26,333 bases of DNA from Sphaerochaetaceae bacterium (lineage in GTDB: Bacteria > Spirochaetota > Spirochaetia > Sphaerochaetales > Sphaerochaetaceae). The stretch is from positions 1 through 26,333 of the forward strand of contig JAKSPF010000001.1 of NCBI GenBank assembly GCA_024405065.1, in the 5' to 3' direction. The translations under genes and the position numbers were made by a program. Below, in pieces: positions 5,315 through 26,333 of the stretch. A model generated the notes under the pieces. It made no database searches. It was not told the origin of the DNA and saw nothing but the letters and a program-made list of their open reading frames with translations. The first letter of the stretch is position 1. The number at the start of each line of letters is the position of its first letter.

Positions 5315-7966
5315 TTATTTGATTTTGACCCATTTTGTTGGGTCAAAAATGTTGTCTTTCACGGTCCACCATTCTCCGTTTCCTACACCGAATTTTGTAG
5401 CAGATTGGTGACCGTTTACAAATATGGGTTGTGGCATTACAAATTTGTTTTTGTTATTTATTTCTTTTCCCGTAAAAGGATTAACCGCATTAAACAGTCC
5501 ATTCACAGCCAGCGTAGGACTGTCCGCATTTGTCATAAATTCATTGGAGACTGTAAACCCATGTGAATTAAAATCTTTTACAAGCATTATGGGATTAAAA
5601 CATCCACCTGCACCTTTAACAATACCATCACCCAAGTCAAATCCGTGATCAGACGTGAGAATAATCCTTGTATTATCATAAACTCCGCATTCCCTCAGAT
5701 AATCAAACCATTCACCCAAAGTAATCAGTGCTGCAAGCTGACACCTGATGTGATAGACAGTAATATAATTTGAAGTATCTAAAATACCCCCCCCCATCGC
5801 AGATACAACCGTATCTGCAGTAACAAAAGGAACCTTATCTTTCACAGTAGAAATGGGAGCAGTAACCTCTGAGATAGTTCCGCTATGAGGTGTTGTATTC
5901 TGTAGCATCAGAAAGGTGTTGTCTTGCCCATCCTCAATTTCCACAATATCCGTCAAACTCAAGAGTGTTGAATATTCATTTGCAAAGTGGGCATCAATCA
6001 CATCTGATGAAGTGGTAACATAGGAACCGGTATCGTAAAAAGGATCGTACAAAAAAAGCGGACAGCACTTCATAATCGGGAACCAAAAGTAATTGTGCAA
6101 AAAAGACCTTACATCCGATACCGAATATTTCTGTTCATACGCAAAACGAAAAACACCGTTCAGATCATAGGCTTTGACATTCTCATACCCGTCATAAATA
6201 CTTAAATCAGAAAATCGGACGTATTCCTCCGTAGGAGGATTTATCACGGTAACATCGTATCCTTCATCAGAAAAAACCGCCGGTAAGACTTTCAATGCTT
6301 CATTGTGTCTTACATGCAAAGATTCTTCCGGTCTGTTGTTTATTGCATCAGGAGTATATTCATACCCTCCGAATAAGGCGGGACTACCTGTTGTTGTCCA
6401 TCCGCCGAACGATACGGTATTAGGATAGAACGTAAAACCGTCATATAGATTTTTCAGTTGAGGATAAAGCGTCAGCTCAAACGGAAAAAGATAACCGGGA
6501 GCCCTGTCAAGCATTATAACAATTACATTTTTCCCTGTTCTGCTCATAGCAAAAAGCTTTTTTTCTGCAGATATTTTATCCGTTTTGGTCACATGAACGG
6601 TTTTGAGCCTGACACCTATGGTCACAATATTCACAAGACAGATGGAAATTACAGTTATAAGAAAAATCACAGTCAGAGATTGTGTAAACTTTCTGAATCT
6701 GAAAAATATAAGGCAAACTACAGATATCACTGCAATGTCTACAACAACATTGAAAAGCATCTGTTTTGAAGTAAAAATTACCTCTTTGTCGTAAATCAGA
6801 TTATATGACAGAATCCCGAGGTCCTTTCCGAAAAACAGGAAATTCACCAACCCCACAACAAAAAACGCAAGCATTACACAACTGAGCATTTTTTTAAATT
6901 TTCCCTGCATAAGAACATAGTAAATATTCACCCACACAAGAAACAGACCGCCGAACATACAGAGCGTAGTCATCAAAACTCTTGAAATACTCATCGGAGC
7001 AGGAGAAAATTCAGCGGGAGAGGACTTTATTACAGATGACGGTATGAGCAAACCCATCAGCAGTGTCAGCAATATACAAGAAACATAGAATATGTGTTTG
7101 TATGTACCCTGCTCATCTTCCTGAGCGTATTGCTTTTCTGTATTCAGAAAACTGCACAGCAAAGGGATACTTCCGGCAACACAGATTGCAACAAAAAACA
7201 TCATTTTCTTGAAATTTGATGCGTATCCCATTTTGATTGCAACCATCAATATCACAACTCCGGCCAGTGCACACAGGTAATATCCGAATCTCTTATATTT
7301 CTTTGATAAATTTCCGACCAGATTTTTTCCCAAGGAGAACACATTGTTCATTGTCCAGTAAAGTACAAGCCCTGACGGACTGTTATACAACAACACCAAA
7401 AATACCAGTGCCATTATGTACAGCTGCAACTTTTCTTTCAGCTTGAACCCTCTTGTGTATATTGCTCCGGACACTATGTTTACAAGTGTCATCACCACAG
7501 GAAGCACATTTATCGTAACTCCCGCAAAACTTATCAATGCATCAGGTTTTGCCAGATTACTGAAACAGAAAAAACTCACCCCTTCCAGAAGTTTCAGTTT
7601 TGACAGATAGTTATACGCTGCCATGAAAAACGGTATCTGCAATAACAAAGATATTGCTCCGCGCAATGCATATATCGGCTTATAATTCTGCTCCCTGTAG
7701 TATGCAGAAAGCACCATTACACGTTTGTCTCCATGATAACAGCGTTTTATCTGATTTACCCACTTCTCCATGGATTTCTGCTTGTTCCGTTCTTCTTCCT
7801 GTATGGCATCAGACCTTTTGTACAGTGGCAGAACCAACAATTGGACAATCAGACTTACTCCGATTATTGATATTCCCGGATTTTCGGAAAATCTGTAGAT
7901 TATCGCAAATACAAATTCTATTATAAATTCTATCGGTCCTATCAGAAGTGCATAAAAAAGGTTCAT
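5315..7966 (-). CDS. YidC/Oxa1 core fused to ~7 extra TM helices and an LtaS/alkaline-phosphatase-superfamily phosphotransferase domain (copy B, 883 aa)
   Basis: YidC motifs LLLQIPFF, NLAKPD, VLPVVM, PSGLVLYWTMNN. C-terminal NVIVIMLDR, FYPNTVSFGGWT, TTPH, IILTSDHG, TNAD. Confidence 0.85.
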   Translation of the reverse strand: MNLFYALLIGPIEFIIEFVFAIIYRFSENPGISIIGVSLIVQLLVLPLYKRSDAIQEEERNKQKSMEKWVNQIKRCYHGDKRVMVLSAYYREQNYKPIYALRGAISLLLQIPFFMAAYNYLSKLKLLEGVSFFCFSNLAKPDALISFAGVTINVLPVVMTLVNIVSGAIYTRGFKLKEKLQLYIMALVFLVLLYNSPSGLVLYWTMNNVFSLGKNLVGNLSKKYKRFGYYLCALAGVVILMVAIKMGYASNFKKMMFFVAICVAGSIPLLCSFLNTEKQYAQEDEQGTYKHIFYVSCILLTLLMGLLIPSSVIKSSPAEFSPAPMSISRVLMTTLCMFGGLFLVWVNIYYVLMQGKFKKMLSCVMLAFFVVGLVNFLFFGKDLGILSYNLIYDKEVIFTSKQMLFNVVVDIAVISVVCLIFFRFRKFTQSLTVIFLITVISICLVNIVTIGVRLKTVHVTKTDKISAEKKLFAMSRTGKNVIVIMLDRAPGYLFPFELTLYPQLKNLYDGFTFYPNTVSFGGWTTTGSPALFGGYEYTPDAINNRPEESLHVRHNEALKVLPAVFSDEGYDVTVINPPTEEYVRFSDLSIYDGYENVKAYDLNGVFRFAYEQKYSVSDVRSFLHNYFWFPIMKCCPLFLYDPFYDTGSYVTTSSDVIDAHFANEYSTLLSLTDIVEIEDGQDNTFLMLQNTTPHSGTISEVTAPISTVKDKVPFVTADTVVSAMGGGILDTSNYITVYHIRCQLAALITLGEWFDYLRECGVYDNTRIILTSDHGFDLGDGIVKGAGGCFNPIMLVKDFNSHGFTVSNEFMTNADSPTLAVNGLFNAVNPFTGKEINNKNKFVMPQPIFVNGHQSATKFGVGNGEWWTVKDNIFDPTKWVKIK
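5787..5795 (-). repeat. G9 homopolymer inside the catalytic domain of copy B, currently in frame (ATG GGG GGG GGT)
   Basis: C9 on the + strand at 5787-5795. No other G/C run of this length was noticed in the window. Confidence 0.9.
7320..7956. repeat. 637-bp direct repeat, copy 1 (identical to 10024-10660)
   Basis: Line-by-line comparison found no mismatch at offset 2704. Shadow ORFs 7416/10120 and 7654/10358 also translate identically. Confidence 0.95.
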
Positions 7967-7967
7967 A

Positions 7968-10670
7968 TCAGGGTTCTGTCCTTATAAGTTTCCAGTTTTC
8001 CGGAACAAAAATATTTTCCTTCACATTCCACCAGTTACATCCTCCGGCAGAAACAAAAAAGTTTCCCGTTCTCAACTCCGAATCGCTGTCATCAAGAATC
8101 ATCTGTATACCCGACTTTACCTGACTGTCAATAGGTCTTCCGGTAAACGGATTAACAGGATTGTCTATAGCATCGCTGAAAGCAATTGTCGGAACATCTG
8201 CATTTGTCATAAATTCGTCATCTATTTTAAAACCATGTGCATCAAAATCCTTTACCATCAGAAGAGGATTGAATCTTGTAGCTAAACTGCTGAGTTTTGA
8301 GCAATTCATTTCCCATCCGTGATCAGAAACAATGATTATTTTGGTATTATCAAAAACATCATTATCCTTCAGCCACTGACAGTATTCACCAATTGCAATA
8401 AGAGCAGCCAAATTAGTACGCAGATGCATTTTAGAACTGTAATCCGATACATCAAGGACGTAACCATCAGAAGATTCAACCACACCTGACGGAACATCTA
8501 CCATAGGAACCTCAGAGTATCTTGTGGGGATAACACCGGAAGCTTCGGCAATACCTCCGTCATGAGTTACACAACTGTACATGAGAAAAAAAGCATTGCT
8601 GCAGTCTTCCGCAACTCCGGTAATTTTTTCAAGATTCAGAAGTCCGGAATAATCATCTATAAACCCTGAATCAAGAAAATCAGAATCGGTTGATGTATAA
8701 TAACCGTCATCATATATCGGGTCATACATACATAACGGACACATTTTCATGATTGAATACCAGAAAAAATTGTGAATAAAACTCCTTTTATTTGATACGG
8801 GATATTCTTTCTCATAATCTTTAACAAACATCCTTTCAATTCTGCGGACACTGATATCAGGATATTCGTCATACATACTTAAATCGGATGTCCAGACATA
8901 ATTTGCCAAAGGAGGATCAAACACATCTACATTGTAGCCGTTTTTTGAAAAAAGCAAAGGCATAAGCAAAAGAGCCTGATTATGTTTTTCTTTTAATGAT
9001 TCATTCTCTCTGTCATTGATTGCCTCAGGCGTGTACTCGTAACCTCCAAACAGTGCCGGAGAGCCTTTGACAGTTCCTCCCGCAAAGGAAATTGTATTCG
9101 GATAATAGGTAAACCCATCCAGCAGGTCTCTCAATTGAGGATACAGATCAAGCTCAAACGGAACAGCAAAACCCAAGGCTCTATCCAGAAAAAAGACAAT
9201 AACATTCCTGCCCTTTTTACTCAGACATAGAATTTTTCCGTCTTCCGGTAATTCATCCATGCTATTAACAGTACTGTCATCCCGAAATTTTTGTGATTTT
9301 TTGTTTTTAATAAAAATCGAACCGATATTAACAAAGCTCAGAGCAATTATACTAATCAGCAGAATAATTGAAAGTTTATGCACAATGTGTTTAAACTTGA
9401 AAAACAATAACCAGCAGACAATAAACACAAAAAAATCAACAACAATGTTTATCGCAATTTCTTTGTGAGCAATTGACAATGGCTTGTCAAAAACAAGGTT
9501 ATAGGACAGAATCCCGAAGTTCTTTCCGAAAAACAGGAAATTCACTGTGCCTACAAGCAGTATTACAAAAACGAGAAATGAAAAAGAACCTTTTGATTTA
9601 TCTCCTGCAAAAATATAGTAAATATTGCTCCATATCAGAAACAACCCTGCAAACAGGCAAAACGTTGTTGCCATAATTGCCCATACGGTCATTCCTCCTG
9701 CTCCGAACTCGTCCGGAGAAGATTTGATAACAGCGGAAGGAATAACCAAGCCTATGAAAATCGTCAAAGATACAACTGAAAGATAAAAAATCTTTTTTGA
9801 AATTTTCCTTCTATCCGGCAGTATATCTATCCGGTTTGCATTTTTCTTGACAACTGATAAAAAAAGAGGAACTGAAGAAATAACGGCAACCGCAATAAAA
9901 AAAACTGTTTTTTTCAGATTTTCAGCGTAACCTTTTGTCACTCCGATAATCAGTATTGATATGCCTGTCACTAAACAGAGCCATTGTCCTGCATTTCTCC
10001 ACTTCCTTGTTACCAGTGCAAAGAGATTTTTTCCCAAGGAGAACACATTGTTCATTGTCCAGTAAAGTACAAGCCCTGACGGACTGTTATACAACAACAC
10101 CAAAAATACCAGTGCCATTATGTACAGCTGCAACTTTTCTTTCAGCTTGAACCCTCTTGTGTATATTGCTCCGGACACTATGTTTACAAGTGTCATCACC
10201 ACAGGAAGCACATTTATCGTAACTCCCGCAAAACTTATCAATGCATCAGGTTTTGCCAGATTACTGAAACAGAAAAAACTCACCCCTTCCAGAAGTTTCA
10301 GTTTTGACAGATAGTTATACGCTGCCATGAAAAACGGTATCTGCAATAACAAAGATATTGCTCCGCGCAATGCATATATCGGCTTATAATTCTGCTCCCT
10401 GTAGTATGCAGAAAGCACCATTACACGTTTGTCTCCATGATAACAGCGTTTTATCTGATTTACCCACTTCTCCATGGATTTCTGCTTGTTCCGTTCTTCT
10501 TCCTGTATGGCATCAGACCTTTTGTACAGTGGCAGAACCAACAATTGGACAATCAGACTTACTCCGATTATTGATATTCCCGGATTTTCGGAAAATCTGT
10601 AGATTATCGCAAATACAAATTCTATTATAAATTCTATCGGTCCTATCAGAAGTGCATAAAGCAAACTCAT
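7968..10670 (-). CDS. YidC/Oxa1 core fused to ~7 extra TM helices and an LtaS/alkaline-phosphatase-superfamily phosphotransferase domain (copy A, 900 aa)
   Basis: Same YidC module as copy B. C-terminal NVIVFFLDR, YYPNTISFAGGT, CVTH, IIIVSDHG, TNAD. ATGA overlap with the upstream gene and a 1-nt gap to the downstream gene. Confidence 0.85.
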   Translation of the reverse strand: MSLLYALLIGPIEFIIEFVFAIIYRFSENPGISIIGVSLIVQLLVLPLYKRSDAIQEEERNKQKSMEKWVNQIKRCYHGDKRVMVLSAYYREQNYKPIYALRGAISLLLQIPFFMAAYNYLSKLKLLEGVSFFCFSNLAKPDALISFAGVTINVLPVVMTLVNIVSGAIYTRGFKLKEKLQLYIMALVFLVLLYNSPSGLVLYWTMNNVFSLGKNLFALVTRKWRNAGQWLCLVTGISILIIGVTKGYAENLKKTVFFIAVAVISSVPLFLSVVKKNANRIDILPDRRKISKKIFYLSVVSLTIFIGLVIPSAVIKSSPDEFGAGGMTVWAIMATTFCLFAGLFLIWSNIYYIFAGDKSKGSFSFLVFVILLVGTVNFLFFGKNFGILSYNLVFDKPLSIAHKEIAINIVVDFFVFIVCWLLFFKFKHIVHKLSIILLISIIALSFVNIGSIFIKNKKSQKFRDDSTVNSMDELPEDGKILCLSKKGRNVIVFFLDRALGFAVPFELDLYPQLRDLLDGFTYYPNTISFAGGTVKGSPALFGGYEYTPEAINDRENESLKEKHNQALLLMPLLFSKNGYNVDVFDPPLANYVWTSDLSMYDEYPDISVRRIERMFVKDYEKEYPVSNKRSFIHNFFWYSIMKMCPLCMYDPIYDDGYYTSTDSDFLDSGFIDDYSGLLNLEKITGVAEDCSNAFFLMYSCVTHDGGIAEASGVIPTRYSEVPMVDVPSGVVESSDGYVLDVSDYSSKMHLRTNLAALIAIGEYCQWLKDNDVFDNTKIIIVSDHGWEMNCSKLSSLATRFNPLLMVKDFDAHGFKIDDEFMTNADVPTIAFSDAIDNPVNPFTGRPIDSQVKSGIQMILDDSDSELRTGNFFVSAGGCNWWNVKENIFVPENWKLIRTEP
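10024..10660. repeat. 637-bp direct repeat, copy 2 (identical to 7320-7956)
   Basis: Boundaries fixed by first mismatches at 7319/10023 and 7957/10661. Confidence 0.95.
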
Positions 10671-23928: not shown

Positions 23929-25251
23929 TTATTTCTTCACAATCCAAATTCCTCGGGTTCCGCCTTCTCTTTCAATAATGCCTTTTTCCTTCAAGGTCGC
24001 AAATGCACGTTCTACACTTCTTTGACCAACACCAAGTTGCTCGGATATTGTTTTAGCACTTATTTTATTATTTTCCAAAACCTTGGATATGACAAAATTC
24101 TCAAGTTCACTATTACCGCCAAGATTACCGCCAGAATTACCGCCAAGATTACCGCCAACTGCCATAACCTCTTCATTAAACGGAATGGTAACGTTAATGT
24201 AATTATCAGTAATTTTGAACGCTTCCTTCCCGTATTTACTCACAATGACAGGGATTCCATGACCGGTGTGTTCAGAGATATTCATCTGATTAAAAATCGT
24301 CATAAGCATATCATTTCTGGGACAACTGACTCCACTGAAGAACTGTTCCTCCGACTGTCCGCTCGGAAGCCCGCCGTGCGACAAGATTTCTATTCTGTTG
24401 CTGAATATGCAAAACAAGGGCTGAGAAACAGTCCAGTCGTTATGGATAATCGCATTGATTAATGCTTCATTGACTGCATTCATATCAAATAGATATTTAT
24501 CCACTCGGGGTCTTACACTCGTGTCTGTCTTGCATATGTTTTCGGAAACAAATCTGTTTCTGATTTTTTCATACGTAAAGAGCAGGCAGCCTCCGCCATA
24601 ATCGTTTCTGCTTGAAATGCAGGTTTTATCCTTTCCGTCAAACTTAACAACGATTATCGGAATCATATTGCTATCAGAAAGAAGCTCTGCCATCTTGTTA
24701 TAATGGCCATCCACAGTTCGCAACTTAAGGCTTTGTTCAAACGAATTGTCATTAAGATGATATCCTGCTGAAGTGTAGTAATTTTTAAGCGTGTTAAAAG
24801 AAAAGTTTCCTGCCATGCCAACAGAACTGATAATAAGGTCTCTGTTTGAAAGTCCCTGCATATATCTGCGCTGTATTTCCTCTGTACTCATGCTCTTGCA
24901 GGACGAACCGATTCTAAGATAGCACCCCGCTTGTGAAAAACCGTGCTTTTTTATGCAGTATAACGACTTTAAGCCCTTTTTAACATCAATTACAATAACA
25001 GTCTTATCTTCAATGAACTCAATTTTAGGTTCTACAAGCCCCGTGGGTACCGGTTCAATACTGTCCGTAATAATGTCAGAAATCTTTTTCAGATTTTCGT
25101 CAACCTTGGATACTCCTATAGGACTGCCGTCATCTTTTATTCCAATATAAATACTTCCGCCATCAGTATTAAGAAAAGCAACTATTTCCTTTGGAAGAGT
25201 CCCATTTAATTTTTCTTTAAACTCTATGGTCTCTGATTCAAATTTCTGCAT
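23929..25251 (-). CDS. Schlafen/AlbA_2 domain + HATPase_c_4 + C-terminal HTH protein
   Basis: ESETIEFKE, AFLNTDGGSIYIGIKDDG, NEALINAIIHNDW, RIEILSHGGL, C-terminal HTH and IIEREGGTRGIW. SD GAGGTG. Confidence 0.85.
   Translation of the reverse strand: MQKFESETIEFKEKLNGTLPKEIVAFLNTDGGSIYIGIKDDGSPIGVSKVDENLKKISDIITDSIEPVPTGLVEPKIEFIEDKTVIVIDVKKGLKSLYCIKKHGFSQAGCYLRIGSSCKSMSTEEIQRRYMQGLSNRDLIISSVGMAGNFSFNTLKNYYTSAGYHLNDNSFEQSLKLRTVDGHYNKMAELLSDSNMIPIIVVKFDGKDKTCISSRNDYGGGCLLFTYEKIRNRFVSENICKTDTSVRPRVDKYLFDMNAVNEALINAIIHNDWTVSQPLFCIFSNRIEILSHGGLPSGQSEEQFFSGVSCPRNDMLMTIFNQMNISEHTGHGIPVIVSKYGKEAFKITDNYINVTIPFNEEVMAVGGNLGGNSGGNLGGNSELENFVISKVLENNKISAKTISEQLGVGQRSVERAFATLKEKGIIEREGGTRGIWIVKK
24112..24156. 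repeat. Four in-frame 12-bp-period repeats (ATTACCGCC core) encoding GGNL-GGNS-GGNL-GGNS
   Basis: Cores at 24112, 24124, 24136 and 24148. Confidence 0.95.
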
Positions 25252-25857: not shown

Positions 25858-26150
25858 ATGCCGAGAGGTGGTTTTAGAGAAGGTGCTGGCAGACCGAAGG
25901 GAACATGTAAGCCAGAGTCAGAAAAGGGACGGAAGACTGTTTACAAGGTGCCGGGCGGAAAGCCGGTTGGTCTGAAAGAGGTGAGAAAGGCGGGAGACCG
26001 AAAGGATCTACAAAAGACGGAACCGGGAGGAAGACTGTTTACAAGAACTTCACGGTTTGCTGTTTGCCGGAAGAGTACGAGGTTTTGAAACAGAAGGCTT
26101 TGGAAAGCGGAAAAACAATAAGCCGGTTCTTAATTGATTTGGTTAAATAA
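25858..26150 (+). pseudogene. Small DNA-binding protein (RGGxRxGAGRP N-terminus + ribbon-helix-helix-like C-terminus) split across two frames by a 98-bp internal duplication
   Basis: SD AAAGGAG. The ATG frame gives MPRGGFREGAGRPKG...GRKTVYK. The -1 frame gives ...GRKTVYKNFTVCCLPEEYEVLKQKALESGKTISRFLIDLVK* (stop at 26150). Confidence 0.65.
25931..26045. repeat. 17-bp direct repeat GGAAGACTGTTTACAAG at 25931-25947 and 26029-26045
   Basis: Exact match with a 98-bp offset. Confidence 0.95.
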
Positions 26151-26206
26151 TTGGAGCTGTAACAAAAAAAACCGTTTTTTCTGACAGAGGGTTACAGCCT
26201 CTTTTA

Positions 26207-26333
26207 TTATTGTCGGATAAACTTTGAGACACGGCTTCATCTTCCTGCAGATCAAATAGTTGCGGAGTGACCTTATTCTTGGATAAACTTTGAGGGAATT
26301 TTTGGCACGTTCCGGGCTGAAAAAGTTGCGGAG
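26207..26333. CRISPR. Edge of a probable CRISPR array: 36-nt repeat GTTGCGGAGTGACCTTATTCTTGGATAAACTTTGAG with 30-nt spacers, truncated by the window end
   Basis: Partial repeat 26207-26228 (20/22 match to the 3' end), spacer 26229-26258, full repeat 26259-26294, spacer 26295-26324, third repeat start GTTGCGGAG 26325-26333. Period is 66 nt and the two spacers are unrelated. Only one complete repeat is visible. Confidence 0.72.

Follow-up and report, generated by a model that had tools for sequence, protein, structure and literature searches.

The end of a contig from a Sphaerochaetaceae-like gut bacterium very likely carries the cas-distal end of a type II-C CRISPR array

Introduction

A stretch of spirochaete DNA stops in the middle of what looks like a repeat-spacer pattern, and the locus raises the question of whether this pattern is the end of a genuine CRISPR array and, if so, which Cas system it serves and on which side the leader and the cas genes lie. 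The window analyzed here, 26,333 nucleotides long, is an entire contig (C1) of a metagenome-assembled genome (MAG) of 199 contigs and 1.28 Mb, 89% complete and with 4.3% contamination. The MAG is Sphaerochaetaceae-like, and the sequencing runs in which this stretch occurs are animal gut and faeces metagenomes, with no RNA run listed among them. The evidence described below makes it very likely that the feature is the oldest, cas-distal end of a type II-C CRISPR array of a Sphaerochaetaceae-like gut bacterium, with the assembly break falling inside the array.

Results

The window ends in one complete and two incomplete repeats

The last 141 bases of the window comprise three repeat copies and two spacers with a period of 66 nt (Table 1), and just one of the three repeats is complete. 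The terminal repeat matches the full one at 20/22 positions in its inner 3′ 22 nt (26207-26228), within which GGATAAACTTTGAG is unaltered, and at 1/14 positions in its outer 5′ 14 nt. An earlier note, made from the letters of this stretch, had described a 36-nt repeat recurring every 66 nt, a pair of 30-nt spacers without relation to each other and, on the left, a terminal repeat preserved on its 3′ side only, and all of these were confirmed on the sequence. As window and contig are identical, the array breaks off where the contig stops, and the assembly offers no sequence with which to extend it; a contig end of this kind is a usual break point for assemblers.

Table 1. Features at the right-hand end of the window (positions are those of the window).
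Feature	Coordinates	Strand	Remarks
Sigma-70-like promoter match, CTGACA-18-TATTAT	26181..26210	+	10/12 positions; consensus match only
Terminal repeat, oldest and cas-distal	26193..26228	+	3′ 22 nt kept, 5′ 14 nt degenerate
Spacer 1, oldest spacer, 30 nt	26229..26258	+	
Full 36-nt repeat, crRNA sense	26259..26294	+	GTTGCGGAGTGACCTTATTCTTGGATAAACTTTGAG
Spacer 2, 30 nt	26295..26324	+	unrelated to spacer 1
Next repeat, first 9 nt	26325..26333	+	cut by contig end

No further copies of the repeat were found beyond the window in the 1.28-Mb assembly when up to 8 mismatches were allowed, and neither the repeat nor a part of it occurs at the ends of the other contigs. The exact repeat gave 0 matches in the JGI metagenome contigs, and no copies with up to 3 mismatches were present in the genomes of forty relatives. 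A search with a degenerate repeat pattern returned a sole match, the locus L089, which is of the type found in the uncultured Spirochaetales MAG RUG12683 (see below).

The same repeat surrounds other spacers in other metagenomes

A pattern with one complete repeat is thin by itself; it is made solid by a cognate anti-repeat on another contig of the MAG and by the occurrence of the same repeat with other spacers elsewhere. The latter was documented by comparing the Logan contigs of four gut or faeces metagenomes (X1 to X4) with the window end. Unitigs of 96 nt in X1 and X4 contain the repeat, a different spacer of ~30 nt and the repeat again, and a 694-nt contig of X3 opens with the repeat, followed by a spacer unlike spacer 2. 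The presence of other spacers around this repeat in other samples indicates that it belongs to a longer array, the content of which varies between samples. The repeats and the two 30-nt spacers of the window, together with four or more further spacers beside this repeat in metagenome contigs, agree with the definition of a CRISPR array, in which identical direct repeats alternate with unique spacers of near-constant length. The earlier note had stated that its reading would fall if the repeat did not continue or if the unit were part of a coding repeat, and the contigs of X1, X3 and X4 answer this in favor of CRISPR.

The comparison of the spacers with phage sets, which the same note had proposed as a route to a PAM, was run on IMG/VR and INPHARED and yielded no convincing protospacer, so that no PAM was derived. 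Both spacers gave 0 matches as 30-mers in IMG/VR, where the 3′ 20-mer of spacer 2 was not matched either, and the INPHARED phages gave weak matches only, the best being a gapped one to MT835478.1 (87.5%, E 0.2). The 3′ 20-mer of spacer 1 has one match in IMG/VR, in IMGVR_UViG_3300023237_000006, which was judged to be due to chance as a protospacer: the other 10 nt match at 1/10 positions and the contig is AT-rich. A second copy of spacer 1 was not found in its own genome with up to 6 mismatches.

A Cas9 gene of the same MAG is split across three contigs

A Cas1 profile search of the same genome gave a match on contig C87, which carries, in this order, the C-terminal part of a Cas9 (443 aa), Cas1 (312 aa) and the first 37 aa of Cas2. 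The cas1 gene directly follows cas9 and is a type II cas1 (cas1_NMENI, 247 bits); cas2 begins 15 nt after it and breaks off with the contig at aa 37. The Cas9 profile TIGR01865 matched three contigs, C149 (143 bits), C99 (492 bits) and C87 (102 bits), which encode the N-terminus, the middle and the C-terminal part of the protein, respectively, with 0 internal stops. Neighboring pieces overlap, C149:1-403 with C99:1611-2013 (403 nt, 90.6% identity) and C99:3-134 with C87:1-132 (132 nt, 97% identity). These data suggest one cas9 gene encoding ~1,100 aa, apparently intact and split across the three contigs, and in the alignment with the Cas9 proteins of relatives the RuvC-I and HNH motif columns are conserved. 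The overlaps are below full identity, suggesting that the cas9 locus was broken in the assembly by co-assembled strain variants, and the pieces may stem from different strains. For this reason, and because the MAG is 4.3% contaminated, the binning of the window with the cas contigs is not in itself proof of one genome.

A predicted tracrRNA next to cas9 is complementary to the repeat of the window

In order to find an anti-repeat, as had also been suggested earlier, the repeat was slid along the cas contigs with RNAduplex. A single outlier was obtained, at C149:598-642 (+), with a duplex energy of -44.3 kcal/mol, the runner-up in the cas contigs reaching -30.6 kcal/mol. Compared to a background of 4,000 random genome windows (mean -14.2, sd 3.3, minimum -31.8 kcal/mol), the C149 site lies ~9 sd beyond. 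Repeat positions 1-36 pair with C149:639-601 except for position 23, that is, at 35/36 positions, and the duplex is made of 32 Watson-Crick and 3 G-U pairs with two small bulges on the tracrRNA side. The pairing fits the + strand of C149 only, as reading the opposite sense would turn each G-U pair into an A-C mismatch. The observation that there is no anti-repeat in the window was correct; the cognate one lies at C149:601-639 instead.

On the 3′ side of the anti-repeat, AAGG comes first, then a 7-bp hairpin closed by a GAAA loop, and finally a GC-rich hairpin of 12 bp that runs into a T run. C149:601-699 (+) is, as predicted from these elements, a tracrRNA composed of anti-repeat, nexus hairpin and terminator. 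A TTGACA -35 element is located at positions 569-574 of C149, and the tracrRNA is located ~100 nt upstream of cas9 in divergent orientation, cas9 having a promoter-like site of its own. No Rfam family matched the tracrRNA region or the array. Two other complementary stretches were discarded: an anti-repeat candidate on C18 (gapless score 17, -28 kcal/mol), which gave way to the C149 site, and an 11-mer complement on C79, regarded as a chance match.

The match between repeat and anti-repeat functionally ties the array to the cas contigs, and the strand of the tracrRNA sets the crRNA sense as the + strand of the window (GTTG...). With a Cas9, a type II Cas1 and Cas2 adjoining cas9, and a predicted tracrRNA with anti-repeat, 3′ hairpins and terminator that is complementary to the window repeat, the earlier call of a type II array was right. 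Type VI, which had been named as the alternative, is excluded; like type V, it was abandoned as a reading as soon as the tracrRNA and Cas9 had been identified.

Arrays of related loci mostly stand directly after cas2

The nearest Cas9 proteins are at most 61% identical and derive from Spirochaetota MAGs, mostly of ruminant guts. Repeats with a period of ~66 nt are present in 56 of 80 related Cas9 loci, nearly all of them immediately after cas2, and the repeats of the relatives are 36 nt long and read GTTG... or GTTC... on the strand opposite to cas9 in nearly all loci. The closest Cas9 found, 61% identical over 669 aa, is that of RUG12683 (CACZJR010000011.1, locus L010), the Cas1 of which is 54% and the Cas2 N-terminus 81% identical. 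This is also the closest locus with an array: downstream of cas9 (1102 aa), cas1 and cas2, a gap of ~65 nt leads to the array on the opposite strand and leaves no room for csn2 or cas4. The RUG12683 repeat is identical to the window repeat at 28/36 positions, with the same ...GATA.ACTTTGA 3′ end, and the tracrRNA has the same architecture and position. A further locus, JAEEGL014889814.1 (L089), has the same repeat and leader as RUG12683 and documents the junction from the other side, with the last repeat, the leader and then cas2 on the opposite strand. The II-C feature of cas2 followed directly by leader and array is found in the closest relatives, L010 and L089; in this genome, C87 ends inside cas2. 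RUG12683 differs in belonging to another species and genus and in its flanking genes, which are not syntenic; likewise, the genes flanking cas9 on C149 showed no synteny with the relatives.

An anti-repeat upstream of and divergent from cas9 was present in 7/7 relatives examined. In the alignment of the tracrRNA with these 7 relatives GCTAACAAG and CAC.AAAT are invariant, and the terminator stem shows compensatory changes in 8 of 11 pairs. For each repeat the best partner is its own anti-repeat, the value for this genome being -44.3 kcal/mol against -19 to -26.5 kcal/mol with foreign ones, which indicates that repeat and anti-repeat co-evolve. Cross-pairing with RUG12683 is accordingly far weaker (-26.5 and -33.9 kcal/mol) than pairing with the own partner (-44.3 and -51.0 kcal/mol), as repeat and anti-repeat have co-diverged between the two.

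The relatives also bear on the orientation. In two of them (L013 and L052) the cas-distal terminal repeat keeps just the crRNA-sense 3′ part, 18 and 15 nt, respectively. With arrays following cas2 on the opposite strand and a far terminal repeat likewise truncated, the relatives bear out the suggestion that the degenerate repeat marks the old end. From their layout we infer that the array of this genome would adjoin cas2. The leader and the cas genes had been placed to the right of the window, and they are indeed expected there, as the tracrRNA sets the crRNA sense to the + strand of the window; the contiguity would follow the relatives' arrangement.

The locus resembles the type II-C system of Neisseria meningitidis

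The Nme1Cas9 locus of Neisseria meningitidis shares with this system a minimal cas9-cas1-cas2 set, a Cas9 of ~1,100 aa, 36-nt repeats starting with GTTG and 30-nt spacers, and the II-C system of Campylobacter jejuni is similar. The array is read towards cas2 in Neisseria and, here, in the relatives, and the leader and the new spacers lie transcription-downstream. Differences were also observed: the Cas9 proteins are distant kin only, the nearest homologues of this one being proteins of spirochaete MAGs, and the predicted tracrRNA here stands upstream of cas9 in divergent orientation.

According to this arrangement, the array would continue rightward from the window to a leader and then to cas2-cas1-cas9, encoded on the - strand, past which the tracrRNA would follow. 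The crRNAs would be read from the + strand of the window, each consisting of a spacer and then the 5′ part of the next repeat, and every repeat would pair with the anti-repeat of the tracrRNA from C149. The crRNA:tracrRNA duplex would be loaded into the ~1,100-aa Cas9, which would cut matching invader DNA beside a PAM, and Cas1-Cas2 would insert new spacers at the opposite array end, beside cas2, while the window keeps the oldest ones.

By analogy with the II-C systems of Neisseria and Campylobacter, the 3′ part of the preceding repeat probably supplies the promoter for each crRNA, and this would explain why the outermost repeat keeps only its 3′ part. In the II-C system of N. meningitidis, the promoters of the crRNAs are embedded in the repeats, and the repeat next to the leader gives rise to no crRNA on its own (PMC12477760); the part of the repeat kept at the old end here corresponds to the promoter-bearing part in Neisseria (PMC12477760). 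Most repeats of the relatives, in a clade of spirochaete and proteobacterial Cas9 proteins, end, in crRNA sense, in a TAnAnT -10-like hexamer (TATAAT, TAAAAT or TAGAAT), which agrees with the Neisseria mode. The exceptions are this genome (TAAACT) and RUG12683 (TAGACT), which have a ...CTTTGAG/T tail and the hexamer 5 nt further in, unlike in the Neisseria repeat, where it stands at the very end. The repeat-promoter analogy is therefore weaker for this genome.

Two other routes of crRNA production can be drawn from the sequence, and together we consider them rather unlikely. The -10-like element, which lies 5 nt further in both here and in RUG12683, might make the crRNAs begin near the first base of the spacer and carry a full 30-nt guide; alternatively, read-through from an external promoter (26181-26210) might be combined with RNase III cutting of the 36-bp repeat:anti-repeat duplex. 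The Neisseria crRNA guide, for comparison, is 5′-shortened to ~24 nt. Either route, if true, would set this II-C system apart in its crRNA biogenesis. The promoter match (Table 1) starts just upstream of the terminal repeat, overlaps it and ends within this degenerate repeat, and is possibly an external promoter for reading through the array from the old end; such matches number 5 in the region, with 2.5 expected. It also overlaps a terminator-like hairpin (26186-26202) of a small gene upstream of the array, described below.

Alternative explanations

That the 66-nt unit, equal to 22 codons, is a chance or coding tandem repeat and not CRISPR at all is hardly credible. There is one complete unit only, and reading frames on the - strand stay open up to the contig end, but the repeats are identical as DNA while the spacers are unrelated, other samples carry other spacers between the same repeats, and the cognate anti-repeat beside cas9 stands far outside what random windows of the genome produce (~9 sd); these last two findings already refute such a reading. 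It is very improbable, too, that the array is of type II-A or II-B and comes with csn2 or cas4. The contig ends inside cas2, so that csn2 could follow, and the csn2 search, which gave 0 matches in this genome, gave 0 in the control genomes too. Against this, the closest relatives run from cas2 into leader and array with no space for either gene, the Cas9 has ~1,100 aa, and the array on the opposite strand, together with the -10-like ends of most relatives' repeats, is as in the II-C systems of Neisseria and Campylobacter.

A somewhat larger, still small probability goes to an orphan or second array located elsewhere on the chromosome, which would share the repeat of the cas9 locus without adjoining it. 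No contig of the assembly and no read joins C1 to C87, the lack of synteny around cas9 on C149 means that the context of the locus is not conserved, and mobile-looking small genes (one RHH-like, one for a tiny membrane peptide) sit directly upstream of the array. However, in most related loci the array comes directly after cas2 and two distinct arrays per locus are not evident, C87 ends inside cas2 exactly at the predicted array start, and the degenerate repeat is found at the predicted cas-distal end. The same tracrRNA and Cas9 would serve the array even if it were detached. The suggestion of an orphan array made in the earlier note is hence not supported, the same MAG holding cas9, cas1, the start of cas2 and the cognate tracrRNA, and the cas-distal end of a II-C array next to its cas genes is the reading we retain.

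The array end is real but ordinary, very probably of type II-C, and of little import beyond annotation. The case documents a fragmented gut-spirochaete MAG with a probable II-C Cas9 system that looks complete; standard tools working contig by contig would overlook it or class its array as an orphan. It also provides a matched set of Cas9, tracrRNA and repeat, in which the ~1,100-aa Cas9, 61% identical to its nearest relative, could serve as a compact ortholog candidate for genome editing. Furthermore, the terminal repeats keeping only the 3′ part, here and in two relatives, lend small comparative support to repeat-embedded promoters in II-C arrays.

Genes on the left of the array

The remaining 26 kb of the window contain housekeeping genes only, in agreement with the earlier remark that no cas genes lie on this side. 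They encode, among others, ProRS, an AMP-binding enzyme, a PLP enzyme, HtpG, a patatin-like protein, an F420-ligase-like protein and a carboxylesterase, along with a CDP-glycerol glycerophosphotransferase-like gene and two YidC-sulfatase fusion paralogues. HtpG shares 82-84% identity with proteins from Sphaerochaetaceae and Spirochaetales MAGs.

The small RHH-like gene directly upstream of the array (25858-26150) contains a 98-nt insertion (25931-26028) that shifts the frame and is flanked by 17-nt direct repeats. The insertion is missing in two other metagenomes, X4 skipping 98 nt (25930 to 26029) and X1 skipping 107 nt, which indicates that an uninterrupted allele of the gene exists in the population; as for the insertion itself, it is either a strain-specific one or the product of a chimeric assembly. 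The last large gene ahead of the small ORFs and the array (23929-25251, -) encodes a 440-aa protein with Schlafen AlbA_2, HATPase_c_4 and C-terminal HTH domains. The two fusion paralogues are arranged in tandem on the - strand (5315-7966 and 7968-10670; 883 and 900 aa), and each combines an N-terminal YidC/60KD_IMP insertase domain with an LtaS-like sulfatase domain. This fusion is unusual, and the CDP-glycerol glycerophosphotransferase-like gene adjoins the pair.
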